IMG/VR virus record: IMGVR_UViG_3300025707_000003
Coordinates: 128,001-192,000 of that record
Source of the DNA: a virus
Lineage: Duplodnaviria > Caudoviricetes
Reading direction: 5' to 3' (one strand)
DNA: 64,000 bases
Under the pieces are notes generated by a model. That model was not told the origin of the DNA and ran no database searches. It worked only from the letters and a program-made list of their open reading frames with translations. This document shows positions 23,239 to 43,577 of the stretch, piece by piece; position 1 is the stretch's first letter, and every line of letters begins with the position of its first letter. The position numbers and the translations under genes were made by a program.

Positions 23239-23292
23239 ATGGATCTCCTTTCAAGAGATTATAAATAAGGGGTTGTTCCATAGGAGACTTAA

Positions 23293-23820
23293 CTACCCCC
23301 CAATCCTCTTTATTGCACCTAAAACCCTATGATGCTCTTCATCACTTAACTTAAATAGATTGTCAAGCACATCACTTGAAAGACCCTCAAGCCCATAAAG
23401 AGCAATGACCTCCTCTCCTGTCATTTGCGGATTAGAAAAGCACTCTTGCTCGACTCTAACCTTAGACCATCCAAACATCTCCATACACACCTCTTTATGT
23501 GGTCTAAACACCTTAACTTTAGGTTCTACTTTAGGTTCACGCTTAAATGCTGAACCCCAACCATTAAGCTCATGTACCAAGTCGGTGTAGTTCACCTTAG
23601 CCCTCTTCAAAACATGATGATAAAAAGAAATGCTCCCCCAATCACTCATTTCAAAGAACTTCCCGTCATAAGCTCCGCTACCTACCCTCTCTTTTAACCA
23701 ACCATGTATGTGGTTAAAGGTAATATCTGGATATAGGTCTATAAAGTTAGGGTGGATCGTATACACCTTTGCATAAGGCATTATCTGATTTGCATCGTGT
23801 GAGTATCTTATCAAACTCAT
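23293..23820 (-). CDS. hypothetical protein
   Basis: ORF with GGAGA RBS behind motif 23877. Confidence 0.6.
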   Translation of the reverse strand: MSLIRYSHDANQIMPYAKVYTIHPNFIDLYPDITFNHIHGWLKERVGSGAYDGKFFEMSDWGSISFYHHVLKRAKVNYTDLVHELNGWGSAFKREPKVEPKVKVFRPHKEVCMEMFGWSKVRVEQECFSNPQMTGEEVIALYGLEGLSSDVLDNLFKLSDEEHHRVLGAIKRIGG

Positions 23821-23989
23821 ATCGGTTCTCCTTTCAAGAGACTTATATTTAAGTCTCCTTTCAAGAGATTATAAATAAGGGGTTACAAACTCGAACCCAA
23901 AAATCACAAACCCAAATAATATACAGAATCACTTATCCAACATCGCTTTTTCAAAAACGCTCATATATAAGACCCCCCCCTCTCTGGAC

Positions 23990-24262
23990 TTAACCTTTAT
24001 ACATAATCTTGTAATCATGCTCCCCCATACGCTTGTATGACTCAATCTGCTCCGCATTCGCTTGCTCTATCTCATCCGAATCTCCCCAAAGAGTTAGCTC
24101 TTTGCCCCAATATCGCCCTAGATTCAAGTATTCAGAAGAAGTCATTTTTAATAAGTCTTCCACAGCTTCCTGTTTGGAGACTGGTAGTTCCAAGCCATGT
24201 CTCTTTATGTATTCTTCACAAGTCATTTGTCTTCCCTGTATTGGTAAAGGTGGTTGAAACAT
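23990..24262 (-). CDS. hypothetical protein
   Basis: 90-aa ORF. Confidence 0.45.
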   Translation of the reverse strand: MFQPPLPIQGRQMTCEEYIKRHGLELPVSKQEAVEDLLKMTSSEYLNLGRYWGKELTLWGDSDEIEQANAEQIESYKRMGEHDYKIMYKG

Positions 24263-24302
24263 GGTTATAGATCAAGGGATGTCAAATTGTATGCGTTTTC
24301 AA

Positions 24303-24334
24303 TATGGGTTTTCGGGACTCCCCCAAAAACCCAT
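24303..24334. other. stem-loop (TATGGGTTTT ... AAAACCCATA)
   Basis: 10-bp inverted repeat in an intergenic gap. Confidence 0.5.
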
Positions 24335-24415
24335 AGAGTCTTTGATGGGGTTCTGAGAGAATGTTGATTAACCCTGTCTTTGAGGGACGAGAAGACCTTT
24401 ATATTCAAGGGGTTA

Positions 24416-25042
24416 CTACTTCGCATCCGTATCTTCCTTCGGCTCGGTTTTCCCTTTTAGCTCGCTTATTTCTTTTAGGAGCTGATCACGCTCTGCTTTC
24501 AAGTGACTATTATTTTGGTAGTATGCGTTGAGGTGGTTGATCATGGTTTCTTTCGGTACGCCCTTCTTCTTGAGATGGAGGTCTTGAAGGGTAACACTCT
24601 GCCATGTTCCGTTTGGGTTCTGACATTCAGCGAAACAAACTACAGAGACTACCTCTCCTTGCACCACTTCGCCAGTATAGGATCTGTAATAGTATATGTC
24701 TCCTGCTCGTGGTAGGTCAGAGCTTGAGAGCTTGGGGTCGGTGTGTACCTCTTTTGGATGAGGGGTCTTAGTAGGAATGTTTGGTTCGGAAATAGGCTCT
24801 TCGACTGGTTCGGAATTATCTGGTTCCGAAGTCTCACTCCAAACGACAACATCCCCAAAAAGATCTAAGGGGTCTGCTTCGGCTGGGTTTCTAATCATGT
24901 CACCGTCAAGAATAAAGTCTCCGTTCTTAATGCATTGGTCGAGGACCATCTTAAAACGAGCATCGCCCATTCTTTTAACGCCCAACTCCTGCTTCGCTAC
25001 CTCTTTAGCCTTCTTGATCGTCAGCCCTATGAGTGCCTTCAT
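24416..25042 (-). CDS. hypothetical protein (N-terminal helical/wHTH-like, C-terminal coiled coil)
   Basis: The stop codon abuts motif 24407. Confidence 0.55.
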   Translation of the reverse strand: MKALIGLTIKKAKEVAKQELGVKRMGDARFKMVLDQCIKNGDFILDGDMIRNPAEADPLDLFGDVVVWSETSEPDNSEPVEEPISEPNIPTKTPHPKEVHTDPKLSSSDLPRAGDIYYYRSYTGEVVQGEVVSVVCFAECQNPNGTWQSVTLQDLHLKKKGVPKETMINHLNAYYQNNSHLKAERDQLLKEISELKGKTEPKEDTDAK

Positions 25043-25476
25043 AGCTCGCCCTCCATACCATCGCCATAGTCGTCATCATCTAGGGCATAGTATTCATCCT
25101 CATCATCGGCACTGTCAAAGTCGAGCATCTCCTCGACCATCTTCTTTAAGATCTGTGCTTTGATCGTTTGGTGGTGGGTTACCTCGACTGAGGAGATGCC
25201 ATAGTGGTGTGCCATGTCCTTGACCTCCTCATAGTTCTCAAGTTCCTCTATGAATGACTTAGCCCATATCTTCGCATCGCTCTCACTTAATCTCTCACTG
25301 TGAGCTTCGGAGATAAGGTCTTGTAGGTGTCCACAGTTATTAGCGTATGTCGTCATATTACTAGTCTCTACTTTCTTGCCATTCATCATAGCTCGCCATC
25401 GTTTGTATATCCTCATTAAACTGCCTTCGCAAGAGGGAGGTCTTAGTTCGGATAGTTTGGTGATCTCCCCATCCAT
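25039..25476 (-). CDS. hypothetical acidic-tailed protein
   Basis: Overlaps the next gene by ATGA coupling. Confidence 0.55.
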   Translation of the reverse strand: MDGEITKLSELRPPSCEGSLMRIYKRWRAMMNGKKVETSNMTTYANNCGHLQDLISEAHSERLSESDAKIWAKSFIEELENYEEVKDMAHHYGISSVEVTHHQTIKAQILKKMVEEMLDFDSADDEDEYYALDDDDYGDGMEGEL

Positions 25477-25735
25477 TTATTTGATTTGGGTCATGATCCT
25501 CACCCCAACCTTGAGGGTTCTCTGATCGTAGGTTGATCCAAGCTCCAAGAGCTGACTCATATTGAGCCACCTCAGTGCTGAACTTACTGACCTCTGCCAC
25601 CCACTCGCTAGGGGTAGGAGGAACATCAAGATCAGCAAAGGCTCGCTCGATCTCTCTCCACTCCCCACGAAAAGGTTGGGGTAGGCTGTTTCGGATGGTG
25701 GCGTATTGTGCTCGTTGTTTTTCTATGGTCGTCAT
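25361..25735 (-). CDS. hypothetical protein (3' end uncertain)
   Basis: GGAGG RBS behind motif 25766; overlaps the downstream gene by 116 bp. Confidence 0.5.
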   Translation of the reverse strand: MTTIEKQRAQYATIRNSLPQPFRGEWREIERAFADLDVPPTPSEWVAEVSKFSTEVAQYESALGAWINLRSENPQGWGEDHDPNQINGWGDHQTIRTKTSLLRRQFNEDIQTMASYDEWQESRD

Positions 25736-25774
25736 GTTGACCTCCTTCTACACCTTTATATAAATAAGGGGTTA

Positions 25775-26416
25775 CTACTTCGTATTGCCCTTATGGTGAA
25801 CGATGCAGTCATAGTGTACCTCCACCATAGACCCTACACGCTTGATCTTCTTCACCCCTCGCTCTTCTAGCAACTCGACTCTATAGTAGTTGCGACCCCA
25901 TGCTCCCCCTGCCCCGATGACCTTAGCTCGTGTGCGTTGTCCACCACCACCTGGCGTACCACTGAACACGATCTCATCACCGATCTTGATCTCACTCTTG
26001 TTGGGTCGGTTATCAGAGACCCAGTCCAACCGAACCAACTTGAGGAACCAGTTGCCAAGATGAGCATCGTTATGAGACTGGGGCTTATCGTGTCCTCTCC
26101 ATGTCTGATAAGGGTAGGTTATAGAGTTTGTACAGTTGCCATATAGACTCACTGTAGACGCTCCATCCTTAGCCCATGTCAAGGTGAGGAAGAAGTCGCC
26201 AAACCCCTCCTTTCGGAGTACGAGATCCACCTCACCCGACAACTCAATGGCAGGTTTGGGGATCACCTTAAACCCTATCTCCTCTGCTAGATCAGTGAAG
26301 AGCTTGATGTGTCGGTCATACCACGACTGCATAGACCCTTTGGTCTTGTATGCAGTCTTGTGATGAGGTGTCGGGATCATCTTGCGAACCCCATTGATCT
26401 TCTGAGTTAAGGTCAT
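25775..26416 (-). CDS. hypothetical protein with C-terminal SH3/KOW-like domain
   Basis: IKIGDEIVF...RAKVIG...YYRVEL; the stop abuts motif 25766. Confidence 0.55.
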   Translation of the reverse strand: MTLTQKINGVRKMIPTPHHKTAYKTKGSMQSWYDRHIKLFTDLAEEIGFKVIPKPAIELSGEVDLVLRKEGFGDFFLTLTWAKDGASTVSLYGNCTNSITYPYQTWRGHDKPQSHNDAHLGNWFLKLVRLDWVSDNRPNKSEIKIGDEIVFSGTPGGGGQRTRAKVIGAGGAWGRNYYRVELLEERGVKKIKRVGSMVEVHYDCIVHHKGNTK

Positions 26417-26438
26417 TAGCAGTCTCCTTTTATTACAG

Positions 26439-26491
26439 TACCCTATAAATAAGGGGTTACCATTAGGCTGTAACCCCTTATTTATAGGGTA
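26439..26491. repeat. 22-bp perfect inverted repeat (back-to-back motif pair)
   Basis: TACCCTATAAATAAGGGGTTAC (26439..26460) and its reverse complement (26470..26491), with a 9-nt spacer. Confidence 0.9.
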
Positions 26492-26528
26492 ACATCAATC
26501 ACTCTCACTCCCCCAAACGGAGAAAAAA

Positions 26529-27122
26529 ATGACTGCGACACAAACCATATTCTTTATATCAGCACTCGTGTTCGTTGGTACCAGCATCAACGCAGGTAAA
26601 AAGGCTTTTGAGGGCAGGGCTGTTTACCACAGCCAATGCTCAATCAACCCTAATCCTGTGCAGTACCAGGGTCACACTGGGACAGTGAGTGTCCGTAGGT
26701 GGTGGTATGTGGATACTGTCACATTTGCTCAGATCAAGGCTAATAAGGCACAGCATAAAATTTGTGAGAGCGTGAAGGTTCTCATGTCGAGTGAGGCTGA
26801 GGTTGCTGAAGCTGAGAGGCTTCAAGATGTCGCCAATAACTGGATCATCTTCTTCTTCGCTTGGCTTGGTCTGGGTGTCTTGATTGAGCTTGTGAGGGTT
26901 CAGATTGGCAACAGGCGGGAGCGTCTTGACCGACTCAACGCTGAAGCAGAGCGAGATCTTGAAGCATCAGCGAGAACTGAGTTCTGGGTCTCTTATGCGA
27001 CAGCTAAGGAAACTGAGCGACAGAGATCTAAGACAGCTAATGAAGAACGAGCCAGACGAAAGGCTGATAGGGGAGCGACCCTTGAAGCTAAAAGGATTGC
27101 AAACCTAGAGCGTAAGGGATAA
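26529..27122 (+). CDS. membrane protein (signal/TM + TM + charged coil)
   Basis: Two hydrophobic segments; GGAGA RBS. Confidence 0.6.
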   Translation: MTATQTIFFISALVFVGTSINAGKKAFEGRAVYHSQCSINPNPVQYQGHTGTVSVRRWWYVDTVTFAQIKANKAQHKICESVKVLMSSEAEVAEAERLQDVANNWIIFFFAWLGLGVLIELVRVQIGNRRERLDRLNAEAERDLEASARTEFWVSYATAKETERQRSKTANEERARRKADRGATLEAKRIANLERKG

Positions 27123-27126
27123 CGAA

Positions 27127-27714
27127 ATGACACTAAGAGAACAAATCCAAACACGAGCCGAGATTCTAGGTCAGTTAGGTGGTCGAGGCACCCTTATGAC
27201 CCAAGAAGAGTATGTACTCGATAAGGGTGCTGAGATGGCTTCTAGTGAGACTTTAACAGAGGAGCAGTACTCGTACCTCAAAATGATCACAGGAATGATT
27301 GAGTGCCTCCCTAAGCAGTGTTTCCATAATGCTCAGATGATGACCCTTGCCGACAGCTACCGAGTCCACCAGAGGGTCAAGTATCACGAGGGCTATGTGT
27401 GGACTGGTTTTATGCCTATCCTCCATGCGTGGATCACCCTTGACGATAAGATTGTTGATGTGACTCTTAGCACTGACCCAGAGTCTACTCAACGCTTCCT
27501 TGCAGGAGATTCGCCACAGGGAGACTTGATGGACAGGGTGCTTGGAGTGATCCCAGATGAGTGGGAATATCTAGGTGTGCCTATGGAGAGTGAGTATGTA
27601 GTTTCCACGATGATGAAGAATCAGGAGTCCCGTTCACTCATCGACAATTGGCAGGACGGATGGCCTCTACTTTCTAAAGTGAGTTCCTCTTTAGATACGA
27701 ATACGAGGTCGTAA
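27127..27714 (+). CDS. putative transglutaminase/papain-like Cys-His-Asp protein
   Basis: QCFHNA ... LHAWI ... IVDVT. The stop codon is the TAA inside GTAACCCC. Confidence 0.5.
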   Translation: MTLREQIQTRAEILGQLGGRGTLMTQEEYVLDKGAEMASSETLTEEQYSYLKMITGMIECLPKQCFHNAQMMTLADSYRVHQRVKYHEGYVWTGFMPILHAWITLDDKIVDVTLSTDPESTQRFLAGDSPQGDLMDRVLGVIPDEWEYLGVPMESEYVVSTMMKNQESRSLIDNWQDGWPLLSKVSSSLDTNTRS

Positions 27715-27764
27715 CCCCTTATATAAGAGTAAATATCAATCACCCACTTCTCAACGGAGACAAC

Positions 27765-28199
27765 ATGGTAAACCTACTCTCAACAATCATCATCCTCGAA
27801 GCTTGCAAAGGCTTTGAGACTTATGACGAAACCTTTGATCGTATGATCCCGACAGCAGGTGCAGAGATCAAATCTTTGAGCTTCGATATACACCCCTCTT
27901 ACTTTGAAGATGAGGACTATAACGCCATCGCACCACTCGCACTGAAGGTGGCTACATACGATGTCATCTGTGATCCGAAGGATCGAGAGGCAATCGTGGA
28001 AGCAATCGCCAAAGGCTTTGAGGGTGTGTCGGATCATGTGAAGCTTTTCAGCATCAAGATGACCTCAACCACCAAGACTTTTTGGAACGCTCGTAAGGGT
28101 AAAGCCACCACTCATAAGAGCCACCATCAACCTCAGCTTGTAATCACTTATAGCGAGGACATGAGAATCAACCTCAAGGATCGTGAAACGAACTTCTAA
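27765..28199 (+). CDS. hypothetical protein
   Basis: GGAGA RBS behind motif 27711. Confidence 0.6.
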   Translation: MVNLLSTIIILEACKGFETYDETFDRMIPTAGAEIKSLSFDIHPSYFEDEDYNAIAPLALKVATYDVICDPKDREAIVEAIAKGFEGVSDHVKLFSIKMTSTTKTFWNARKGKATTHKSHHQPQLVITYSEDMRINLKDRETNF

Positions 28200-28252
28200 G
28201 ATGTCGTAGCGTTCAGTGAAGGGTCTAGGCTAGGGTTGCTCCTTTAATGCTC

Positions 28253-28534: not shown

Positions 28535-28599
28535 TTTAGTGTCCTTGAATCATATTTAAGAGTACCTATTTATTATATGATTTGGGCTACTAAGGACTC

Positions 28600-29142
28600 T
28601 CAATAACTGATGTCTTTATGAGCTGGACTACTCTTATTGATCTTCTTACGACAGATGGGGCCGATAGCTTGCTTTAAGCTCGAAGGGTTAGTGAGGGGGA
28701 GAGCACATCTCGCACACTTGGCTTCACACATGATCTGTAGATTATCGGGCATCTCGAAGTCTTGGTCAGTAGATACTCCTAAGAGCCAGACGAGGGTTTC
28801 GTAGCCGATGTCGAGTCGGGGCTGATTGAGGTTCAGTCCGCATTGGATTCGGAGCGTACCTCTCTCATCGACTGTCCCGATGGTCTGATACACAGGGTCA
28901 TACAAGCTGTTAAGTCCATGTAGGTTAAGGCTCACTTCAACAGGTTCATTGACGGTCTGCCCCTTTAGACGAGTCGCCTTGTAGGTGAGGTGATTGTCCT
29001 TACGCTCGTTGCCGAAGGTGAACACCCAGGACTTGGTTCTCTTGGACGGAAGGGCGACACCGTTATGGTCATGTGTCGCCCCGAAGAAAGGGGCTGTAAG
29101 GTGAGCGAGGAACTCACTAGGTTTTATCTCGACTTGCTTCAT
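28600..29142 (-). CDS. Zn-ribbon (DUF6011-like) protein, paralog A
   Basis: CARCALPLTNPSSLKQAIGPICRKK; likely start MKQVEIK at 29142. Confidence 0.65.
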   Translation of the reverse strand: MKQVEIKPSEFLAHLTAPFFGATHDHNGVALPSKRTKSWVFTFGNERKDNHLTYKATRLKGQTVNEPVEVSLNLHGLNSLYDPVYQTIGTVDERGTLRIQCGLNLNQPRLDIGYETLVWLLGVSTDQDFEMPDNLQIMCEAKCARCALPLTNPSSLKQAIGPICRKKINKSSPAHKDISY

Positions 29143-29956: not shown

Positions 29957-30481
29957 TTAGACCCCTCGACTTACCTTGCTCGATGAAGCCTTCTTGCGAC
30001 ATACTGGCCCCATGCCATCGTCCACACTGTCTGGGTTGGTGAGCTTCTTAGCACACCGACAGCATTTAGAAGCACCCTTGATCTCAAGAGCGTCTGGAAG
30101 CTCCACCCCATTGTTGAGCTTCGTGATAAGCCACACGAGGGTACGATCTGCCACAGTCTTGCGATCAGCATCTACCACGCTCTTAGGGCTTGCCTTGTAG
30201 AACCCTCTTGGGCTGACCGAGCCGATGAAGCCGAAGTCTGAGGAGTTATCCTTGCCGACCATGAGGTCGATGAGGACAGGGCTTTCAACAGTCCACCCAC
30301 GAGGGCGGCGAGCCTTGAAGGTGAGGTGGGTATCACGCTCGTTGTTGTGGAGCGTGAATGTCCACGCCTTGCTTGAGGTTGATGGGAGAGCCTCGCCCGA
30401 CTCGCTGTGGGTGTCCTTGCCACCGAAAGGGGCGAGGAGAGCTGGAAGGAAGTTGTCGGATGTGATGTTTACTGTGTTCAT
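29957..30481 (-). CDS. Zn-ribbon (DUF6011-like) protein, paralog B
   Basis: CCRCAKKLTNPDSVDDGMGPVCRKK; collinear similarity to 28600..29142. Confidence 0.65.
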   Translation of the reverse strand: MNTVNITSDNFLPALLAPFGGKDTHSESGEALPSTSSKAWTFTLHNNERDTHLTFKARRPRGWTVESPVLIDLMVGKDNSSDFGFIGSVSPRGFYKASPKSVVDADRKTVADRTLVWLITKLNNGVELPDALEIKGASKCCRCAKKLTNPDSVDDGMGPVCRKKASSSKVSRGV

Positions 30482-30574: not shown

Positions 30575-31390
30575 TTAGATGTAGCTCTTAGCCTCTACTC
30601 CTGTGGATGACTTGACGATCTTCTCAAGATGATCCATCATGCGAGGTGCGATCTCAAGAGCAGACTTACCACTGATACCGTTAGGCAAGTTATCCCCCTG
30701 TACACCTAATCCGATACCGACTAGTTTGATACCTTGGGCTTGGGCTTGGAGTCTCATTGATTCTAAGTAAGCCTTCTCGTAGTCTTCACCATCAGTGAGG
30801 AAAAAGGCGATCTTATGAGTAGCATTAGATTTAGACACCATGTCGATTGCAGTTTCGGCATAGCAGACGATACTTGTCCCACCACTGCAACGCTTATTAC
30901 GAAGCCTATCAGGATTATCTCGTTGCCATTTATCACCAAGACCTTTGATCATGTTAGCTACAGGCTTGTAGCTTGAACTTGCCATAGGGACATCTCTATC
31001 CCCATAGGTGTACATGACTAGGGCAGAGCTTGAGTCAACCCCGATTGATTGACATGAAGTATGGAGTCCATTTATGAGGCTGATACACTCATTCCAATAG
31101 TTTCCACTAGGAGTAGTATTGCTATAGTTCATGCTGTCGCTCCCATCACAGGCGAAACTGAAAGCCGCTCTCACTTGTGGCTTCTGATACATCTTGATGT
31201 GCCGATCTTTATTCACTTGTCCAGTTCTTACGCTTACAAGCGTATTCACTAAAGCTGTGGAGCGAGTGTTGAGTCTCGCACCTATGAAGTTTTGACCAGC
31301 CTTTTGGTTAGCAACCTCTAAGGCTCTGCGAACCTTATTAGTGCCTCGACCAAGAGCCGAGAGGACTTTGGTGTCATATTGGTTTGGCAT
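30575..31390 (-). CDS. von Willebrand factor A domain protein
   Basis: MIDAS DGSDSM, GGTS and FFLTDG, then LVGIGLG. Confidence 0.85.
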   Translation of the reverse strand: MPNQYDTKVLSALGRGTNKVRRALEVANQKAGQNFIGARLNTRSTALVNTLVSVRTGQVNKDRHIKMYQKPQVRAAFSFACDGSDSMNYSNTTPSGNYWNECISLINGLHTSCQSIGVDSSSALVMYTYGDRDVPMASSSYKPVANMIKGLGDKWQRDNPDRLRNKRCSGGTSIVCYAETAIDMVSKSNATHKIAFFLTDGEDYEKAYLESMRLQAQAQGIKLVGIGLGVQGDNLPNGISGKSALEIAPRMMDHLEKIVKSSTGVEAKSYI

Positions 31391-31452: not shown

Positions 31453-32622
31453 TTAAAGGAACTTCCGATAGATCGGTTTAGATCCATTGGGGATATAAAG
31501 CTCATGGTCTAATTGCTTTTTATTCTTATTGACCTCTTGCTTCATTGCACTATTAGGATCAAGTGCTTTACCCTCACCGTCTAAGAGTCGTTTGATGTCG
31601 TTGAGGCTCATGGGAGACTTACCTGCTTCTTGTTGAGGCTTGCTATCATCCCCTTGCTCATTAGGCTTGTTATCATCCCCTTGCTCATTAGGCTTGGTTG
31701 GGTCTTCACCCTTACCCTTACCTTTACACTTACCCTTGCCTTTACCCTTGCCTTTACCTTTACCATCTTCGGGAGGTGGTTCTTTCAGCATCTTATGAAG
31801 AGCGTTGATGACCTCGACAGCGACATAGACAGGAAGGTGAGCCGAAGACTCCCAATCAGTGTTTTTTGGATTAAGCTCAGACCATATAGGTTTGAGGTAG
31901 TCCACCAAGTCTCTAGCCTCTTGCTTGTACTCAGCATAGACAGCTTTTGACTCATCGGAAACCCAACCCTTCCCACTGTCTCTAAGAGCCATGAGAAAGT
32001 CACTAGGAACTTCCTGTCCTCTCCCTTCAGATTCAAGCTCATGACACCAAGTTTGGATTGCATGAAAGCGATGTTCGACCTCTGGATAAGAGAGTGCCAT
32101 TCCTGGTTCAAGTCTCATATCAGCAGTCACATTAACCCATTTAGGGAGGTTAGACTCATGGTATGGGATCTCCATCTCTAAGTGGCGACCAACATGAGTG
32201 TAAAACTCAGCAAAGGTAGGGAAGCGACCATTCGCACAATCACAGATGGCATGACCTGCTTCATGGATTCCACCACCGACACCTGCGGAAGCATTGATTG
32301 TGGTCACACCTGCGGCTGAGGGTGCAGGGAGGTACAAAGTCGCCTTCTCTGGCCCACTCTGAAACTTATATAATGCGTCTTGATAGATCGCCTTTAACCA
32401 CTTTGCTTTATCAGACGAGTCGAAGTCTTTCCCTCTAACATTTTGAATAGCTCGACCAAAGACGAGCCAAGGGAAGGATGCTGAGATAGCGAATGTGCCA
32501 CCTTGTCTCTGCACAGAGATACCTCTCAGCATTAAGGTAAGAGCCTCGAACGCTCCCTTAGCGAAGCTCAAAGGATCTCTTTTAGCATATTGTGATGGGT
32601 CGTGGTTTGTATCCATATTCAT
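31453..32622 (-). CDS. HExxH metallopeptidase-like protein with low-complexity linker (CobT/DUF2201 N-terminal-like)
   Basis: GIHEAGH, NVTADMRLE, and a (GK)n/QGDD linker. Confidence 0.65.
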   Translation of the reverse strand: MNMDTNHDPSQYAKRDPLSFAKGAFEALTLMLRGISVQRQGGTFAISASFPWLVFGRAIQNVRGKDFDSSDKAKWLKAIYQDALYKFQSGPEKATLYLPAPSAAGVTTINASAGVGGGIHEAGHAICDCANGRFPTFAEFYTHVGRHLEMEIPYHESNLPKWVNVTADMRLEPGMALSYPEVEHRFHAIQTWCHELESEGRGQEVPSDFLMALRDSGKGWVSDESKAVYAEYKQEARDLVDYLKPIWSELNPKNTDWESSAHLPVYVAVEVINALHKMLKEPPPEDGKGKGKGKGKGKCKGKGKGEDPTKPNEQGDDNKPNEQGDDSKPQQEAGKSPMSLNDIKRLLDGEGKALDPNSAMKQEVNKNKKQLDHELYIPNGSKPIYRKFL

Positions 32623-32650: not shown

Positions 32651-32732
32651 CACAATACTAATATATAAGGGGTTACGCTTCTGTTATAGGATTGCCAATA
32701 AAAACTGTAACCCCTTATATATTAGTATTGTG
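32651..32732. repeat. 26-bp perfect inverted repeat (back-to-back motif pair)
   Basis: CACAATACTAATATATAAGGGGTTAC (32651..32676) and its reverse complement (32707..32732), with a 30-nt spacer. Confidence 0.9.
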
Positions 32733-32834
32733 TAGGGGGGAACAATCCCCCGAAAATCGTATAAGGTTATTATCCTGTAACCCCTTATTTATAGACTCTT
32801 GTAATCAACTCGCACTCTGACAAAGGAGAACCTC

Positions 32835-33971
32835 ATGGCTCGTCAAGCACCAAATCTAAATACTCTCAAAAGCAACTCATTCTGTGGAGTGAAGAGACTG
32901 ATGTCTCCCCTCACAAATACAGAGATCAAAAGTGCAGGTTGGACTCCTGCCGAGCGACCCAACAACTATGTTGAGGACTCTTCAGAGGGATGGATGCAGG
33001 ACGCATCCATGTTTCTAAAAGTGAATCACATGATCGTCAGTGGGCCAGCAGGCACAGGTAAGGATGATTTGGTGAAAGCGTTTTGCCACGCTTTCAATAT
33101 CCCATGTAAGAGGTTCGCCTTCAAGCAAGGCACTTCACCTACCGATTGGGTGACCCGAACCACCCTCGTTTCAGTCGATGGAGGTACTGAAACGAAGGAG
33201 GTCGAAGGGGAGCTTTTAAAGGCGTGTAGGGGGGTCACTTGTAAGCGAGACTTTACAGGTGCAACTCCACTCCAACTCTCTGAGTCCATCAAGGACATGG
33301 AGGGTAATGGGTACACCGTTATCAATAACGATGGTATGCTCACCATCACTGTCCCAGGAGTCGTCATCTTTTCGGATGCTGACCGAGCCTTACCCGATAT
33401 GCTTGAACTGTTGAGGGAGGCTGTGGAGAATGGTAAAGAGATGATCGCCAATCCCATTGAGGGAGGGTTGTTCAAAGTGTTGCCAAATACTCGGTTTTAT
33501 TTCACCGCTAATAGTGGTGCAGATGGAAGTGAAGGTGGAGGGAACATCACTCAAATGAAAGACTCCAGCTTCTTGTCTAGGCTCATTGGTATCTACGCAC
33601 CACCTCCCACACCTAAGTTTGAGAGAATGGTTGTACAGGCTGAGTTTCCTCAGTTTGATACCGATCAAGTAAAGCTCCTAGTGGATTGCAATCGAGCGAT
33701 ACGCAAGGTGGCTGAAGAACAAGATATGGGACTTGAGATCACTCTACGACAGGCCAAACAGTGGGGTCATGCTTGTCTTTTGGTCATGAACGACTTGGGT
33801 ATCACTGACTTTAAGAAGGCACTCAAGCGTTCGTTTGTGACCATAAAAGGTCATTTAAATATGAAGCACAATCAGAACGCTTTTGAGGGTGCTATAGACC
33901 CTTACTTGAGATCAGATGTGGTTGACGCTCAAAGCCAATCTTCATCTGATGTTTGCCCTATTGACCTCTAA
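32835..33971 (+). CDS. MoxR/CobS-type AAA+ ATPase
   Basis: Walker A GPAGTGKD, Walker B-like VIFSDAD, FTANS, SSFLSRL and ITLRQ. Confidence 0.8.
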   Translation: MARQAPNLNTLKSNSFCGVKRLMSPLTNTEIKSAGWTPAERPNNYVEDSSEGWMQDASMFLKVNHMIVSGPAGTGKDDLVKAFCHAFNIPCKRFAFKQGTSPTDWVTRTTLVSVDGGTETKEVEGELLKACRGVTCKRDFTGATPLQLSESIKDMEGNGYTVINNDGMLTITVPGVVIFSDADRALPDMLELLREAVENGKEMIANPIEGGLFKVLPNTRFYFTANSGADGSEGGGNITQMKDSSFLSRLIGIYAPPPTPKFERMVVQAEFPQFDTDQVKLLVDCNRAIRKVAEEQDMGLEITLRQAKQWGHACLLVMNDLGITDFKKALKRSFVTIKGHLNMKHNQNAFEGAIDPYLRSDVVDAQSQSSSDVCPIDL

Positions 33972-34057: not shown

Positions 34058-34822
34058 ATGACAACACAGGAACAAAAAAACTTAATACTAAACGCTATGC
34101 GAGAGGTGTTCCCAAACATCTTGCCAAGTCGTCTTCAAGAGGCTCGACAAGCAGTCCTTACCCATGTGGGTATGACTGAAGCTGACTTTGGGTATTACCC
34201 ATCGGGTCAACCTAAGTTTAATAACCTCTGTAGCCAAGCTGTTAAAACGCTCAAGTCTACAGGGGAGATGACCACTCAATGTTGGGAGTGGCGATGGAAT
34301 GTGGTTTGCTCCGAAGAAGCACCTGCTCCTTCGTATGATAACACACCAATGGAGATGATGATGGAACTAGAAGATGAAGATGACCTCTTCGGTGACTTTG
34401 AGATCGTACAGTCTACTCCAAGTCTCTATAATCTCAACGATGAGGAAACAATGATACGCCTCGTGGCTACGACCCCTTGCTTTGGCAAAGTCGTGCAATC
34501 AGACTCGATGTGTCAAGGTTGTCCTCTCTTTGACTCTTGCTGTGAAAAGAAGGGTGAAGATTCCCTCGCTAAAAGAGAAGCGAAGGAAGCCCGAAAGGAA
34601 GCCCTAGAGCAAGCCTCTCTCGCAGGGTATGACTTGACTAAGGTCAAAGTACCCAAGTCGGCACGACTTCACGAGACACAGCATATAGAGGCACTAGCTG
34701 ACACCTCTTGTGTCGTGTCGGGAGAACCGATCCTCACAGGAGAGGTTGCCTATCATATCCCAAGTTGGGGTATGGTAAAGAAAGTCATTGGAGACTCATA
34801 TAAAGCAATGAACAATCTATAA
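34058..34822 (+). CDS. Mrr_N-like winged-helix protein with Cys-rich C-terminal part
   Basis: YPSGQPKFNNLCSQAVKTLKSTG resembles the Mrr N-terminal motif PSG...F.NRV.WA...L; also PCFG...CQGCPLFDSC. Confidence 0.5.
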   Translation: MTTQEQKNLILNAMREVFPNILPSRLQEARQAVLTHVGMTEADFGYYPSGQPKFNNLCSQAVKTLKSTGEMTTQCWEWRWNVVCSEEAPAPSYDNTPMEMMMELEDEDDLFGDFEIVQSTPSLYNLNDEETMIRLVATTPCFGKVVQSDSMCQGCPLFDSCCEKKGEDSLAKREAKEARKEALEQASLAGYDLTKVKVPKSARLHETQHIEALADTSCVVSGEPILTGEVAYHIPSWGMVKKVIGDSYKAMNNL

Positions 34823-35499: not shown

Positions 35500-35916
35500 A
35501 TGAACTTCAACACACTTATGAACACAATGAACGATACTAACCTCGACATCAACCAACGAACCGAAGCGGCAAGTAAACTATGGGAAGCACAGAACAGGTT
35601 TAACAAGTCTCTTAAAAGTTTCAAGTCAGAACTGATCGAGATGGCAGATGACCAAGATCTTATCATCGAGTCGGCATCGGGTAAATACACCACGAGGGTA
35701 GAAAAACAACCCCCCACACCTAAGTTGGAATCGGTAGACATCTGCGACATCGAGGACGCTATCAGTGAAGATCTCTTTGATCAATACATCGCTCATAGTT
35801 ATACGATCCGTTGGAGCGAGTTTAGAGAGGCTCCAGAAGAGGTGAAAGAAGCGTTCTATGCTGTACCCAACCTCGAAACGATGCAGACCTACCAAGTCAA
35901 GTTTAAGAGGTCTTAG
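35500..35916 (+). CDS. hypothetical protein
   Basis: The stop abuts motif 35916. Confidence 0.6.
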   Translation: MNFNTLMNTMNDTNLDINQRTEAASKLWEAQNRFNKSLKSFKSELIEMADDQDLIIESASGKYTTRVEKQPPTPKLESVDICDIEDAISEDLFDQYIAHSYTIRWSEFREAPEEVKEAFYAVPNLETMQTYQVKFKRS

Positions 35917-35956: not shown

Positions 35957-36691
35957 ATGATCCATCAAAACAAAAGACGAGCCTTCCACAAAGGCATGGT
36001 AGCGGGTAAGACTCCTGCTGAGATCGCACAAGACTGGGAGCTAACTGAGCTTGATGTCGTACAGACGCTCAGACACCCGAAGCCTAAGATTGGATGGGCT
36101 AACTATAACCACTTAAAAGTACCAATCCCGATGGACGAGATCATAGATGCGTACCACGGGGGTACGCTTGAGGTCTTAGGTGAACTTTATGGTGTGACTA
36201 AACAAACAATATATCAGCGACTCCCTCAAGAACTGAGAAAGTCAGCAAAACGAGGTCGAAAACCTAAAGACAGTAGACCCACAGAGGCCACACTCCTCAC
36301 TTCAGAAGAAAAAGATCGGATTGTAGCTCGCTACTACCGTTCAGGTCGCAAGCTCTCTGCCTGTGGGGTCACGAGTCAGATCGCTAAAGAGGTCTTAACC
36401 GAACAAGAGATCTCTTTCCTAAAGAAAGGAGAACAAATACCACCCAAAGATATGGTCGCTTTACTTGACTGTCTCTTAGAAAAGACAGCTCAAGGTATCA
36501 TCGAGCCTCAAGTGATGTACAGTTGGAGTCGGAAACTTTATGAGCTTAAGACCAATAACCCTCATGTCTGGAAAGGGCAAATGCTAGACTGGCTCTTAGA
36601 AAATAAAATCTCTCAAGATGTTGTTCCACATATAAATGAAGCTATCGGAGAGATCATTAAACTACGGGGTTATGAAGATGCTGACAGTTAA
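35957..36691 (+). CDS. multi-HTH DNA-binding protein
   Basis: GKTPAEIAQDWELT and TLEVLGELYGVTKQTIYQRL HTH patterns, GRKPK; start MIHQNK at 35957 with GGAGA RBS. Confidence 0.6.
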   Translation: MIHQNKRRAFHKGMVAGKTPAEIAQDWELTELDVVQTLRHPKPKIGWANYNHLKVPIPMDEIIDAYHGGTLEVLGELYGVTKQTIYQRLPQELRKSAKRGRKPKDSRPTEATLLTSEEKDRIVARYYRSGRKLSACGVTSQIAKEVLTEQEISFLKKGEQIPPKDMVALLDCLLEKTAQGIIEPQVMYSWSRKLYELKTNNPHVWKGQMLDWLLENKISQDVVPHINEAIGEIIKLRGYEDADS

Positions 36692-37010: not shown

Positions 37011-37013
37011 AAC

Positions 37014-37751: not shown

Positions 37752-37811
37752 TGTTTATGCCTTTCATATAAATGATCTGTAGTATGATAGAGATAAAGAA
37801 AGTATTAAGTT

Positions 37812-39017: not shown

Positions 39018-39021
39018 AATC

Positions 39022-39381: not shown

Positions 39382-39614
39382 GCACTCGCTCTAAAGAGCA
39401 TGGTGTTAAGTGCTTGGATCTTACGCTCTACCCAAAGAACAGTCTTGAGGACAAAGCTCGGTTCGTCCAGCACAGTCAGAGTATTTACCATAGCCTTATA
39501 AGCCTTCGGATCAAACTCTAGGTCATCATTATTTGGGATCTTTACATGGTGTGATCCATCTCGCTCGATTATGATGATGATTGATTCTTGTAGATCTCTT
39601 TTAGTTAGACTCAT
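39378..39614 (-). CDS. hypothetical protein
   Basis: Coupled by ATGA overlaps. Confidence 0.55.
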   Translation of the reverse strand: MSLTKRDLQESIIIIIERDGSHHVKIPNNDDLEFDPKAYKAMVNTLTVLDEPSFVLKTVLWVERKIQALNTMLFRASA

Positions 39615-39897
39615 GGATAAGTCCTTTTTCCTTTAAGGAGTTTGTAAGTTGCCCCCAAGTCATCGTTGATGTTAGGGGGAGTATGATTGTACTTGTGGTA
39701 AAGTTTAAGGTAAGCAACTTGTTCTCCAACCTCACGCTGTTAAGTGTCGGAGCGATTGTCTTTAAAAATCTCTCTAGTCGGCTTTCGCTTAACAGCGTGA
39801 GAGGAGTCTCCTTATGAGTCTTGAGGGTTGTACTTGTGGTAAAGTTTGTTGACATAGATCGCCACCCCTCCCCAAATGCTCTGTAGTGGACAGTCAA
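39601..39897 (-). CDS. hypothetical protein
   Basis: Thr-rich; NFTTST occurs twice; start uncertain (possibly 39855). Confidence 0.4.
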   Translation of the reverse strand: MTVHYRAFGEGWRSMSTNFTTSTTLKTHKETPLTLLSESRLERFLKTIAPTLNSVRLENKLLTLNFTTSTIILPLTSTMTWGQLTNSLKEKGLIHESN

Positions 39898-41002
39898 GAG
39901 GCTTCATACAAGGCTCAACTAGACCACCAAAGTCATCGGTATGATCGCATTTGTGAGTACAGGAGATGAGAGCCTTGACATGAAACAGACAACCGTCCTT
40001 ATGGTTCTTTTCTGTTTCAAAGAGTCTTACTGCTTTCAAGGCATACCTAGTATAGCGACCGTCAATCTGATTAAGAGCATCAAGTCGGTCTTGATCTATA
40101 TCCACAGGGATTATTACATAATCCTCTCGCTTCTTTTGGGTCAACACGATGTTTCGTGCGACCATGTCTCGGTACACCTCATAGCTACCCTTCACTTCAT
40201 TTAAAGTCATCTCGATAGGGTCAAAGGAAGCACTCTTGCGAAGCTCTCTCAGATCATAGCTCGGTTGAGTGTCCTTTTCTACCTCTTGAGTCTCCATATT
40301 GCCCTCTACAGGCAGTTCGATCTCAAGGGTAGGTTCTACCACCTCTTGAACCTCAACAGGCTCTACAGGAGCAACCTCAACCTCAACCTCAACAGGCTCT
40401 TGCTCTTGCTCTGCAACAGGCTCAAGTGTAGTCGTGCTTACCTGCACACTTGAAGTGATGTACCCATCCTCTACTTTATCAAGAGAGATGCGGTAGTCCT
40501 TAGACCCACCGACATTCTCCACCAACTCATTTGTGGTAGTGTCGATGTGGGCTTCGATGACAGCTGGGTTGTCCACCTCAACAGGGACATGAGTTTCCTC
40601 GACCTCTTGAGTTTCCTCGACCTCAAGGGTAGGCTCGACCACAGTTTCGACCACAGGCTCAACCTTTTTAGCCTTAGCCTTCTTAGCCTTAGCCTTAGCC
40701 TTAGCCTTAGCAGGGATTGTGGTAAGGTCAAAGTCGGGGTGGTAGTACCCACGCTTATGGGTGATAAGTTCACCACTCTTTTTAAGTTCCTGTATGCAGT
40801 CATAGACCTTGACCTGTACGACAGACCAATTGTGCTTACTCTTGGTCATGCCGAACTGATCTACGAGAACAGGATTAGCATCACAGTACAGTGTCTCTAA
40901 CTGTCCTGTACTCTCGCCTGGGTTCGCCTGTACTAGAGCAGGAAGTTCAGCTCGGATACGAGTCTTGAGGTTTTCGATGTCTTGCTTTGTGTAGGTAGCC
41001 AT
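39812..41002 (-). CDS. wHTH + (AK)n basic tract + Glu/Val/Pro-rich linker + Cys/His C-terminal domain
   Basis: Start MATYTKQ at 41002 with GGAGA RBS behind motif 41049; TTAGCC repeats encode AKAKAKAKKAKAKK. Confidence 0.6.
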   Translation of the reverse strand: MATYTKQDIENLKTRIRAELPALVQANPGESTGQLETLYCDANPVLVDQFGMTKSKHNWSVVQVKVYDCIQELKKSGELITHKRGYYHPDFDLTTIPAKAKAKAKAKKAKAKKVEPVVETVVEPTLEVEETQEVEETHVPVEVDNPAVIEAHIDTTTNELVENVGGSKDYRISLDKVEDGYITSSVQVSTTTLEPVAEQEQEPVEVEVEVAPVEPVEVQEVVEPTLEIELPVEGNMETQEVEKDTQPSYDLRELRKSASFDPIEMTLNEVKGSYEVYRDMVARNIVLTQKKREDYVIIPVDIDQDRLDALNQIDGRYTRYALKAVRLFETEKNHKDGCLFHVKALISCTHKCDHTDDFGGLVEPCMKPLDCPLQSIWGGVAIYVNKLYHKYNPQDS

Positions 41003-41078
41003 GTTGTTCTCCTTAGTGAGTGTGGGCTGATTACATAGAGTTATAAATAGGGGGTTACAGCGAAGCACCCGATGAGGA

Positions 41079-41684
41079 CTATAGGGTAGGGTTGTCAATC
41101 CCATTCACAGTCGCTGAAGCAGGGAGTTTGTACTGTCTCCATTTACGACTGGTGAGGTCTAACTCACGACTGATAGCGTTCTTGATTTGGACATGAAGAC
41201 CACTTTTAGTCTTTCTCGCATCTCCGTTGGGATCAGCCGAGAGAACACGCTCTCCGATGATGATTCCACGAACATGGACATCACCTGTTCCATCGTGGAT
41301 AGAGACACCCTTCACACCTGCTGGATGATCGCTGTAAGCCTCAAGATGAGAGTTGTCATCGTTAGACCCTGTGGCTGACTGACGGAGTGCTGTCAGCAGA
41401 CCTTTCTTGCGTGGCTGATCCCCATCGAGAGCGAGATCAAAGTCAAGATCGGTAAAGACCAACCCACGATCCTCAAGATCCACCTTGAGCTTGGCTCGAT
41501 CAGCCGACTCTACCTTGACCATATCCATAGCGGCGATGGTCTTGTGGTCAGTACCCACGAGCATCGACACCTCGACAGTATGCCTCCCTCTGACAGTGCC
41601 TCCGTCTTTCTTGAGGTCAGCCTTGCCCGACTTGGTTGTAGTGAAAGTTAAAGTTGTGTTTGGTGTTGCTGTGATGTTCTGCAT
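41079..41684 (-). CDS. hypothetical protein (paralog of 42833..43354)
   Basis: VHVRGIIIG...QIKNAISRELDL. Confidence 0.6.
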   Translation of the reverse strand: MQNITATPNTTLTFTTTKSGKADLKKDGGTVRGRHTVEVSMLVGTDHKTIAAMDMVKVESADRAKLKVDLEDRGLVFTDLDFDLALDGDQPRKKGLLTALRQSATGSNDDNSHLEAYSDHPAGVKGVSIHDGTGDVHVRGIIIGERVLSADPNGDARKTKSGLHVQIKNAISRELDLTSRKWRQYKLPASATVNGIDNPTL

Positions 41685-41790
41685 GGGAGTCTCCTTTCAA
41701 GAGATGTGGTTTGCAGTTTGAAATGATTATATGATTGCTGGTAAATGTTTCCTAGCCTCTCACACTAGGATATATTTAAGGGGTTACAGC

Positions 41791-42063
41791 TTACGCTCCC
41801 CCGACTCGCTCTAACAGAGATGTTTGAGCGTTCTCGATCAGCTCTGCCTTGTTCTTCGCCTCATAAGAGTGGAGGACATCGAGTTTGTTCTCACGATTGA
41901 GAGAGGCATAGTAAGCAGACACCTTAGATCGTACTGCCTTAACTGTGGGCTTTTCCTCAGCCTCTCCCATTAAGAGAGAGAAGCTGAGAGAGCTGATGAT
42001 GTCGCTGATTCTGTTAGAAGCCTCTGAGTAGGTTAAAAGTGCGTTCATGTCTTTAGTCTCCAT
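41791..42063 (-). CDS. hypothetical protein
   Basis: ORF behind motif 42108. Confidence 0.55.
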   Translation of the reverse strand: METKDMNALLTYSEASNRISDIISSLSFSLLMGEAEEKPTVKAVRSKVSAYYASLNRENKLDVLHSYEAKNKAELIENAQTSLLERVGGA

Positions 42064-42157
42064 TGGGAGTTAGGGGTGAGGATCGTTCCTCATATAATGG
42101 TATAGATAAGGGGTTACGCTTCAGTCAAGTATTTGATTTACTTAGCAAAAGCGTGTA

Positions 42158-42201
42158 GCGTAACCCCTTCTCTATTACCTAACATGAAGGCAATCAAGCC
42201 C
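42158..42201 (+). repeat. 44-bp imperfect direct repeat (copy 2 at 42611..42654, 41/44 identical)
   Basis: GCGTAACCCCTT..TCTAT.AC.TAACATGAAGGCAATCAAGCCC flanks the 42227..42616 gene. Confidence 0.85.
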
Positions 42202-42226
42202 CACCACCACTCCCAAAGGAGAAAAA

Positions 42227-42616
42227 ATGAAACCACAAACAAAGACTAGACTAGACGAGATAGAGAGTACCGACCACAAACAAAGTGGCTTCCTCTCTTG
42301 CGGGGGAGATGAGTATCAGATCTCTTGTGGAGAGGCAAAATGGGAAGTGGATAACGCTCTAGCTCTAGCACAGCTCCTCATGTTAATCGAGGAGGATGAA
42401 GAAATTCAATCATTTTCCATCTTGAGCGGAGCGAATGGCTATGACCATGTTTTTACCCGCTCCAAGTCAGGATGGCTCATACAGGATCATCATCTGGTCA
42501 ATGGGGTTTGGTTTCAAGAAACCACACGCTCTCCTGTCTCAATGCCTTTTCTCATTGACTCTTATCCCGATGATTGGGATGAGTTGGATTGGTGGTGCGA
42601 AAAAGGGGAAGCGTAA
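42227..42616 (+). CDS. hypothetical acidic protein
   Basis: GGAGA RBS; the stop is the TAA inside GTAACCCC. Confidence 0.6.
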   Translation: MKPQTKTRLDEIESTDHKQSGFLSCGGDEYQISCGEAKWEVDNALALAQLLMLIEEDEEIQSFSILSGANGYDHVFTRSKSGWLIQDHHLVNGVWFQETTRSPVSMPFLIDSYPDDWDELDWWCEKGEA

Positions 42617-42676
42617 CCCCTTATCTATAACTTAACATGAAGGCAATCAAGCCCAACTCTCATAAAGGAGACTTTC

Positions 42677-42820
42677 ATGAAAAACTTCCCAACAAAGCAT
42701 TTGAAGAAGGTCGCTAAAGCTACTCTTGTCTCACTGAGACCAGGGCCTCGCCCCAACCCTTTTATAAAGAAAGAGGAAGAGGAAATTCCTCACAGCCTTA
42801 TCACCAAGATTATTAAATAA
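42677..42820 (+). CDS. unannotated 47-aa peptide MKNFPTKHLKKVAK...
   Basis: AGGAG RBS behind motif 42613; below the ORF-track cutoff. Confidence 0.5.
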   Translation: MKNFPTKHLKKVAKATLVSLRPGPRPNPFIKKEEEEIPHSLITKIIK

Positions 42821-42832
42821 AGGAGAACCACC

Positions 42833-43354
42833 ATGACTAACCACCCAAGAGTAAAACTGTCAAGAATCAACGGAGACAACAAATACTCTGTCATCCTCGA
42901 CATGACCATCTCATACAAAGAGGTTCTTAACGAGCGTCTTAATCGCCTCAACGCTTTCGTTGCCGAGAACAGCCTTGAGAGTGCAACTCGCCTCATCAAT
43001 GAGGCAGGTGTGGCCTGCACGACTAAGGATGTGGACAAGGTGATCTTTGGTAGCAAGGGTCTTATCCCTAGCACCATCGCTTCTCTTAATGGGAATAATA
43101 CGAACCGTCCTAAGAGCTACAGTGGCAAGCTCACTCGCAGAGATGGAAGCCCCCACTTCATCGACCAAAACGGAACAGAGTTTGTCCGAGGTGTCATCGT
43201 TGATGGACACTACCCACAGAAGACTCCAACCCATCTCTTCACAGCGATCCGAAACTGCATCGAGTCTAACTTGAACCTCCCACGCTACATCCGTCATGAG
43301 ATCCAAGAGCATGACGAGACTGTGGATCGTGATGAGAACAACAACCCTCAGTAA
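42833..43354 (+). CDS. hypothetical protein (paralog of 41079..41684)
   Basis: EFVRGVIVD...AIRNCIESNLNL. Confidence 0.6.
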   Translation: MTNHPRVKLSRINGDNKYSVILDMTISYKEVLNERLNRLNAFVAENSLESATRLINEAGVACTTKDVDKVIFGSKGLIPSTIASLNGNNTNRPKSYSGKLTRRDGSPHFIDQNGTEFVRGVIVDGHYPQKTPTHLFTAIRNCIESNLNLPRYIRHEIQEHDETVDRDENNNPQ

Positions 43355-43428
43355 GAGAGCCACCACATGACGCTCAAGCTCATCGTACTAATGATTATCA
43401 GAACGGCTCTGCCTAAAGGAGAAGAACA

Positions 43429-43521
43429 ATGCTCTCAACGATCTTAGACATCGCGGGTGTAGCGAGCATCTGCCTCATCGGGATTTTCATCGTCAGCTAC
43501 TATCGCACGAAGAACCTGTAA
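43429..43521 (+). CDS. unannotated 30-aa single-TM peptide MLSTILDIAGVASICLIGIFIVSYYRTKNL
   Basis: AGGAG RBS; the stop is the TAA inside GTAACCCC at 43518. Confidence 0.55.
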   Translation: MLSTILDIAGVASICLIGIFIVSYYRTKNL

Positions 43522-43577
43522 CCCCTTATCTATAACCATACATGAGGAACGATCCTCAACTCTTTAAAGGAGAAACA

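Follow-up and report, generated by a model that had tools for sequence, protein, structure and literature searches.

The locus described here raises the question of what a short motif, GTAACCCCTT, does when it recurs along the genome of an uncultured phage, and of what reads it. We analyzed a stretch of 64,000 nucleotides (nt), positions 128,001 to 192,000 of the IMG/VR virus record IMGVR_UViG_3300025707_000003; this whole stretch is referred to as the window. A previous description made from the letters of the window (the sequence-only reading) had proposed that a block at 23267 to 43527 is an accessory region of gene cassettes, delimited by a phage-specific promoter that doubles as a recombination joint. 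Our best explanation of the whole, which we consider probable rather than secure, is that the motif forms the 5' part of a 17-bp promoter and defines its class, that a phage-encoded reader of this part directs the host polymerase to it, and that the copies also recombine with one another.

The window comes from a clade of huge marine myoviruses that are uncultured and have genomes of about 375 kb. To our knowledge, essentially nothing is known of transcription in huge uncultured ocean phages. DNA of the window is present in marine sequencing runs from at least 13 studies. Comparison of the block by megablast with 50,697 records of cultured phages gave no match, and a full-text literature search for the motif returned unrelated primers only. 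The window was compared with relatives from IMG/VR that share 70 to 90% DNA identity with it (labeled G001, G002, G005, G006, and G009), the closest being G006 (85 to 90%). G001, a 375,691-bp contig rated complete, was compared over its full length. Its gene content is of the myovirus type (family A DNA polymerase, ribonucleotide reductase, a sheath-like protein, and baseplate J), and it is not T4-like. Genes were called with our own simple open reading frame (ORF) model.

A 17-bp element ahead of non-structural genes

Exact copies of GTAACCCCTT number 20 in the window, compared with 0.15 expected, and none of 100 shuffled sequences reached 20. Nineteen lie within 23877 to 43527, and one stands alone at 63506. 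The sequence-only reading had counted 21 copies in the block; 19 of them are exact, and 21 is reached only by including two near-copies, ACAACCCCTT at 23260-23276(-) and GTAACCCCCT at 41042-41058(-), which were found by allowing mismatches to GTAACCCCTTATNTATA. The first of these accounts for the start of the block having been placed at 23267. The extra copy that had been reported at 63506 is present (63506-63522, +), isolated, and of the same class, designated class A below; it precedes 63544..63831.

The motif is the front of a longer element. The complete element is 17 bp, (Y)GTAACCCCTTATyTATA, with GTAACCCCTT as its 5' part ((Y)GTAACCCCTT-ATy-TATA). In a logo built from 82 aligned copies (window and G001), a weaker T..TRT.ARGGG follows at +20 to +31, beyond the 17-bp core, and a C/A-rich leader comes next. 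Positions 17 to 19, right after the TATA, carry 0.11 to 0.27 bits, and a conserved Y-R-Y lies 7 to 10 nt beyond the TATA. The logo has no -35 element. There is a weak general preference for AAGTY immediately 5' of the motif; the flank TAC(T/G)ACTTCG (CGAAGT(A/C) on the other strand), which had been noted beside several copies, is real in about five copies and matches this preference. The repeated site is an oriented, non-palindromic 17-mer 5' of each gene, followed by a ribosome-binding site, and it forms a contiguous conserved block that is uniform within each genome, as do the blocks of 17 to 23 bp in T7-type promoters.

The position of the copies argues strongly for a promoter. A same-strand gene start lies 10 to 135 nt downstream of 19 of the 20 window copies and of 59 of the 62 G001 copies, compared with 8.3% of random oriented positions (p ~1e-60), and all 62 G001 copies precede a same-strand gene. 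Every window copy is intergenic or overlaps the very end of the gene before it, with a Shine-Dalgarno sequence and an ATG 28 to 118 nt downstream. Orthologous copies are kept before orthologous genes in four genomes (the window, G001, G002, and G006). Divergent pairs stand 9 to 60 nt apart, the closest (26451/26470) being separated by 9 nt. Such spacing leaves no room for another promoter, and transcripts from the 9-nt back-to-back pair therefore should start at the motif and not upstream of it. Sigma70-like sites were not enriched in the block (21, compared with 26.6 expected), and a single canonical sigma70 site was found upstream of genes in the whole 375-kb G001 genome. All of this agrees with the earlier proposal of a phage-specific promoter that is not of the sigma70 type.

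The genes behind the motif are non-structural and include a CobS/CobT-like pair of AAA and vWA proteins, CNNM, SNF2, and many unknowns, and about half of the class A copies lie in one block of small genes of about 30 kb. As judged from sequence, the motif is almost certainly the promoter of a class of non-structural genes. The transcription units that it heads are probably early or middle ones, gene content being the only guide to their timing.

We also considered whether the motif acts in RNA, as a processing site or the site of a translational regulator in polycistronic transcripts, and is not a promoter. Its strand specificity, its position 30 to 130 nt before start codons, and its frequent placement right after an upstream stop codon with no terminator between would fit such a role; terminator-like sites indeed were not enriched in the block (15, compared with 16.1 expected). 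However, where two divergent copies stand back to back with 9 nt between them, at most one can be internal to a transcript initiated farther upstream. The AT-rich 3' half of the motif also is shared with promoters of structural genes (see below), an Rfam search of the window gave no match, and no conserved structure involving the motif was found. We regard an RNA-level role as extremely improbable. Hairpins do occur downstream of about 45% of the copies, starting near +27 (mean z of -1.7; z < -1.5 in 48%; an example is GAGGAACGATCCTC). They sit downstream of the promoter, in the 5' leader, and lack T-runs.

Promoter classes were sought by k-mer enrichment upstream of G001 genes. In addition to the motif described above (class A), this revealed class B, TTnTAGTTT(A/C)TTTAT(A/G), i.e., TTnTAGT-TTATTTATA, which heads small leader-tagged genes as well as operons with baseplate wedge, Baseplate_J, and sheath-like proteins. 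The nine 3' bases, TTATYTATA, are common to classes A and B, and the 5' octamer differs (GTAACCCC in class A and TTTGTAGT in class B). Upstream of G001 genes, this 3' box occurs at 39 class A sites, 28 class B sites, and 20 other sites. Since the two classes share the 3' box and differ only in the 5' octamer, the octamer is the class selector. Class C consists of a single box, (A/T)TCATATAA, with no -35 element; in G001 it stands upstream of about 35 genes as well as of tRNA genes, and in the window it occurs at 28573, 34796, 37764, 41727, and 42090. Six of the copies are hybrids, GTAACCCCTTAATCATATAAC, with a 2-nt change in the distance from the 5' box to TATAA. This grammar separates non-structural from structural genes without annotation.

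The statistics of the motif, the placement and orientation of its copies, their conservation before orthologous genes, the dialects, and a chimeric promoter at one inversion end (see below) are observed directly. That the motif acts as a promoter, where and when transcription begins, and what reads the motif are inferred from sequence, and the mechanism that we propose is as follows. The 3' box TTATYTATA would serve as a common core, and the 5' octamer would pick the class. Transcription most likely starts 7 to 10 nt past the TATA box, at the conserved T-R-T; in about 45% of the copies, such a start would put a small stable hairpin at the extreme 5' end of the C/A-rich leader. The 5' box most likely is read by a fast-evolving phage-encoded specificity protein, which would direct the multi-subunit RNA polymerase of the host. 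This gives one abundant clade a promoter grammar that is concrete and can be tested.

Dialects of the predicted promoter among close relatives

The main new result is that these predicted promoters, at orthologous places, are spelled genome by genome. Besides GTAACCCCTT, the spellings found were GTGACCCCTT, ACACCCCTT, GTCACCCAA, GTCCCCCCCT, and GTTACTCTTC; we refer to them as dialects. G006 carries GTGACCCCTT (GTGA in place of GTAA) in 16 of its 17 copies and GTAA in one, and no GTGA copy is found in the window, G001, or G002. When the promoters of 15 orthologous genes were compared across the four genomes, 14 were GTGA in G006 and GTAA in the other three. Class B promoters are unchanged in G006.

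The comparison was extended to 19 relatives that were picked by their AAA protein (family f47) and so independently of the motif. Each locus with a repeated motif was internally uniform, a pattern seen in 17 relatives, and six dialects occupied the same orthologous places: GTAACCCCTT; GTGACCCCTT; ACACCC(C/T)TT-AAATTCTA; GTCACCCAAnAnT-ATCTA; AGTCCCCCCCTCnATCTTAG; and AGTTACTCTTC. The AAA proteins of the phages with these six dialects are 70 to 77% identical. On the tree of this protein, the change from GTAA to GTGA (A3 to G) arose at least twice.

Independent drift cannot yield 14 identical changes among 15 promoters. Gene conversion is unlikely, as variable positions 11 to 13 and the leaders stay diverse among the copies. 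The lone GTAA copy of G006 was considered as a recent import and this was rejected; its surroundings are 82% similar to the window, no more so than the rest. The repeated k-mers CCTTTACCCTT and CCTTGTCC (L133, L140, and L144) were rejected as promoters, being coding sequence of a GK-rich linker. This low-complexity linker lies in a peptidase-like gene upstream of the vWA gene (L133:1190-1300 and L140:2916-3000) and consists of tandem 12-nt repeats in variable number.

The simplest reading of a concerted change of the 5' box at all orthologous promoters of a genome is coevolution with a phage-encoded reader. The dialects could instead reflect the hosts, if the host holoenzyme read the motif through a primary or alternative sigma factor with an unusual consensus. 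The resemblance of the 3' box to a -10 element would suit this, as would the lack of any phage sigma factor or RNA polymerase among the proteins found (see below). DNA recognition by host sigma factors, however, evolves far more slowly than the dialects do. The window and G006 are 85 to 90% identical in DNA, yet 14 of 15 promoters differ between them with the second class unchanged, and the six dialects occur among phages with AAA proteins as similar as those above; no -35 element is present. We consider recognition by the host holoenzyme alone to be quite unlikely.

Coevolution with a phage-encoded reader would make the dialects a natural experiment in switching promoter specificity at the scale of a whole genome, and they point to the reader as a protein that covaries with the 5' box. 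A cassette that carried a foreign dialect would be silent, and this implies a barrier to gene exchange between close phages.

Copies in the window and rearrangement of the block

The block had been described as accessory. About 36 of its roughly 45 genes have orthologues in G001 and G002, mostly in the same order and at 45 to 93% amino acid identity, and this description does not hold; the block is conserved, with variable pockets. Its G+C content is 45 to 49% (24000-36000 and 40000-44000), compared with 39 to 42% in the 20 kb flanking it on either side.

At the left end of the block, the near-copy at 23260-23276(-), a class A variant (ACAACCCCTTATTTATA), lies 28 nt before the ATG of 22870..23238, and its ACAA variant is kept in G006. 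The copy at 23870-23886(-) precedes 23293..23820. In the leader of this gene (23830-23886), an inverted duplication of the ribosome-binding-site region, TCTCTTGAAAGGAGA, forms a 10-bp hairpin (-14.8 kcal/mol; z of -6), which would sequester a ribosome-binding site. The copies at 24400-24416(-) (GTAACCCCTTGAATATA) and 25759-25775(-), the latter before 25361..25735, abut the stop codons of 24416..25042 and 25775..26416, respectively. A divergent pair 9 nt apart follows at 26444-26460(-) and 26470-26486(+), and a copy at 27711-27727(+) precedes 27765..28199. Farther right, a copy with a 5' hairpin (30537-30553, -) precedes 29957..30481, and one at 31418-31434(-) precedes the vWA gene (30575..31390). 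A divergent cluster comprises 32660-32676(-), before 31453..32616, and two copies, 32707-32723(+) and 32777-32793(+), before the AAA gene (32835..33971); the arrangement of this cluster (32660..32793) is kept in 17 relatives, in other dialects.

Beyond the AAA gene, the copy at 33990-34006(+) precedes 34058..34822, and homology to G006 breaks at the 5' edge of this promoter. The copy at 35916-35932(+), before 35957..36691, overlaps the stop codon of 35500..35916. The second variant (GTAACCCCCTATTTATA; 41042-41058, -) precedes 39812..41002, and the copy at 41771-41787(-) precedes 41079..41684, whose G006 orthologue has the sole G006 copy that is still GTAA. A divergent pair (42101-42117, -, and 42160-42176, +) and a copy at 42613-42629(+) follow. 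The last copy of the block (43518-43534, +), which has a hairpin, stands before the operon 43578..45950; this operon overlaps a 3039-amino-acid (aa) ORF (45947..55066) by ATGA, as in translational coupling.

The sequence-only reading had drawn attention to the stop codons at these junctions. The TAA of the motif is, as it stated, the stop codon of 27127..27714 and of 42227..42616. It also is that of 43429..43521, a 30-codon ORF that is doubtful as a gene. At 24416, 25775, and 35916, where stops had been said to abut the motif, each TAG shares its G with motif base 1. Such overlaps are explained by tight gene packing and by the presence of stops in two of the three frames of the motif. Among tandem junctions in G001, 6 of 33 end on the TAA of the motif. 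In most tandem junctions, the motif begins 0 to 25 nt after the upstream stop.

Several rearrangements have their ends in copies of the promoter. The segment 26470..29794 is inverted relative to G001, G002, and G006, and both of its ends lie within inverted copies, 26470(+) (the plus-strand copy of the 9-nt pair) and 29785(-). The right-hand promoter (29778-29794, -) is chimeric: its upstream flank is homologous to that of the f37 promoter of G002, and its leader is homologous to the f42 leader. The f104 cassette is flipped between G001 and G002, again between inverted copies, and the f41 and f116 cassettes have swapped order. A cassette specific to the window (42223-42836, +), with ORFs of 129 and 47 aa, is absent from G006 and is inserted between direct repeats of promoter plus leader, about 45 nt long, at 42160 and 42613.

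Other changes lie away from the motif. These include the loss of f34, f53, and f27 in G006 and insertions at 22429|22520. An inversion of about 39.0 to 43.4 kb relative to G006 (39001-43415) ends at the convergent junction 39017/39022 and after 43354, off the class A motif. The gene 28600..29142 has a breakpoint off the motif, and its counterpart in G001 and G005 is the second gene of another operon, which indicates that it moved without a promoter of its own. The genes at 28600-29142 and 29957-30481 are paralogous (family f41), and the first is 80% identical to the G001/G005 gene that is sited elsewhere. Window 10379-21145 also is inverted or relocated relative to G006. Compared with random sequence, breakpoints are truly enriched at the motif, 5 of 15 falling in 6% of the DNA (p=0.002). 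The proposal that the motif is a recombination joint, to be checked by gene order, thus stands in part: two inversions, a cassette swap, and an insertion lie at copies, whereas other breaks lie elsewhere and there is no enrichment over gene boundaries.

These patterns fit opportunistic homologous recombination at dispersed repeats. Ordinary recombination between copies would produce inversions, cassette swaps, and cassette gain or loss, and it would be a side effect of having 20 to 60 near-identical copies of promoter plus leader scattered in both orientations. Copies are identical to one another over 22 to 45 nt; the phage encodes RecA, and this length is enough for it to recombine them by homology.

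A dedicated site-specific recombination site, either integron-like or cut by a topoisomerase IB at CCCTT, with the promoter role secondary, was weighed against this. Two inversions with both ends exactly in inverted copies are what such a site would give, and poxvirus topoisomerase IB cleaves (C/T)CCTT (PMC2666729). The searches of G001 and G002 with PF00589 gave one borderline match, a topoisomerase IB-like ORF (PF01028, 1.3e-12) at G001 61721-63145(+) (L087:1721-3145); the protein is 474 aa, is conserved in G002, and has no sequence match in PDB. Its gene, however, stands about 270 kb from the block, behind a class B (late-type) promoter, and the specificity of bacterial TopIB is relaxed (PMC2666729). 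CCCTT lies within the class A motif and also in the leader of class B cassettes (AACCCTTAACC), and the dialects GTCACCCAA and GTTACTCTTC lack it. Many rearrangements are off the motif, and the enrichment at junctions is not significant. We judge a dedicated recombination site to be very unlikely. That the CCCTT of the motif matches the poxviral target is noted and is not relied upon; a variant of our explanation in which CCCTT also is the target of a topoisomerase IB-like enzyme is more remote.

Candidate readers and comparison with known systems

Two genes form an operon at G001 42275-43367(-) (L086:2275-3367). One is a 174-aa ORF in which a KOW motif is weakly matched; the other encodes a 188-aa protein whose two tandem helix-turn-helix domains resemble sigma70 region 4 (PF04545, 6.6e-6) and which is 87 to 95% conserved in G002 and G009. 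Both are candidate phage transcription factors, and they would fit dealings with a bacterial-type polymerase. The position of the Y-R-Y, the unconserved base after TATA, and the 2-nt spacing variant seen in six copies also favor, as a leaning, the host polymerase with a phage factor.

The motif might instead be the promoter of an unrecognized phage RNA polymerase, either a single-subunit enzyme or a very divergent one. Such an enzyme might travel in the virion, as the sequence-only reading had suggested, and transcription would then be independent of the host enzyme from the outset. An uninterrupted 17-bp element that is AT-rich at its 3' end, in dialects with a recurrent one-base switch, recalls T7, T3, and SP6, and canonical sigma70 promoters are as good as absent from 375 kb. 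Many giant ORFs also lack a detectable family. The 3039-aa ORF just downstream of the block (45947..55066) had no match in Pfam, PHROG, or PDB and only weak look-alikes in Atlas; its DNA shows 89% identity to that of G006, and G001 has a counterpart of 3049 aa. On the other side, PF00940, PF00562, and PF00623 gave no match in G001 or G002, with the limit that the control genomes for PF00940 gave none either. A regular expression for the catalytic motif of two-barrel RNA polymerases returned, among called proteins, two irrelevant C-terminal matches and no D[FYW]DxD signature, and PHROG gave no match to a virion RNA polymerase. Pfam analysis of 13 large G001 proteins revealed DNA polymerase A, ribonucleotide reductase, inteins, sheath-like, and baseplate J domains and no RNA polymerase. 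The base after TATA is unconserved, the Y-R-Y 7 to 10 nt downstream fits the geometry of a bacterial polymerase, and the spacing of the six hybrid copies and the candidate factors described above do not suit a phage polymerase. We regard such a polymerase as unlikely, although it is the strongest of the alternatives. Intein and LAGLIDADG insertions were seen at window 3428-6553 (1041 aa), in its G001 counterpart (3255-7340; 1361 aa), and in the G001 ribonucleotide reductase (86441-89101).

A number of observations weigh against our preferred explanation, that of a phage-encoded reader working with the host polymerase. No homologue of sigma region 2, T4 gp55, or MotA was detected: PF04542 gave no match in G001 or G002, a sequence search of both with T4 gp55 (L123:9601-10158:-) found nothing at E<=1, and the MotA family PF09114 gave no match, as was the case for its control genomes. 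Sigma70 needs a T at -7, and the -10-like box of the logo has none. The 188-aa protein was rejected as the reader of dialects, since neither of its helix-turn-helix domains differs between GTAA and GTGA genomes. Several ORFs of 2000 to 3000 aa match no family, and a contiguous 17-bp promoter with genome-specific dialects is equally typical of phage single-subunit polymerases. One or two GTAA copies remain in GTGA genomes, so the switch is not absolute. Broken junctions do not concentrate significantly at the motif (11 of 17 junctions with it and 10 of 26 without it are broken; Fisher p=0.12). Finally, there were no RNA runs among the runs listed as containing sequence of the block or of 32300-34250.

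Extending the preferred explanation to the whole clade is more tentative, and we put it forward as a possibility that we somewhat doubt. The clade, a widespread one, would run its whole program on two-part 17-bp promoters with no promoters of the sigma70 type, and repeated switching of the phage reader of the 5' octamer would drag 20 to 60 promoters along. Should class A be transcribed before all others, its reader would have to enter the cell together with the DNA.

The sequence-only reading had likened the array to an integron, and rows of small single-gene units parted by a repeated short site are indeed common to both. Unlike in an integron, no integrase lies beside the array, and an attC-type hairpin site and a Pc promoter shared by the units are absent; each unit has its own promoter, genes lie on both strands, most units are vertically inherited, and many breakpoints are off the motif. 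An integron-like array is not supported.

The promoters of T7, T3, SP6, and K11 resemble the element in form. They too are uninterrupted, about 17 bp long, and AT-rich at the 3' end; each genome has a uniform consensus, and in a close relative every promoter is altered together by one or a few bases. Here, in contrast, no single-subunit RNA polymerase gene was detected, no conserved initiating G follows the TATA, two promoter classes share a 3' half, and the genome is 375 kb.

The middle promoters of T4 (MotA box and sigma70 -10, used by sigma appropriation) and its late promoters (gp55, TATAAATA) resemble the element in that a phage box replaces the -35 upstream of a -10-like box, promoters are single blocks with no -35, and the class sets the timing. 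Unlike in T4 middle promoters, the box abuts the -10-like element and is not centered at -30, and the T at -7 is missing. T4-type late promoters are nearly invariant across distant relatives, whereas the 5' box here changes between close ones, and no MotA or gp55 homologue was found.

The promoter-early stem-loop (PeSL) cassettes of T4-type phages (Arbiol et al. 2010, PMC2839356; Comeau et al. 2014, PMC4122927) offer a parallel for the shuffling of genes. The PeSL promoter is sigma70-like (-35 TTGACA and -10 TATAAT), and the motif is not; the PeSL stem-loop is a terminator joined to the promoter, whereas here terminators are not enriched and the leader hairpin lies downstream. This phage also is not T4-like, with its family A DNA polymerase and no gp55, and its relatives retain most of the genes in the block. 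As in PeSL, however, short regulatory cassettes are repeated before small unknown genes in a variable region, and a stem-loop lies beside many copies. Recombination between PeSL copies leads to insertions, deletions, replacements, and reordering, and the inversion, the f104 flip, the swap, and the insertion described above are events of this kind. The resolved inversions show that the shuffling of genes by repeated regulatory cassettes is not confined to the T4 group.

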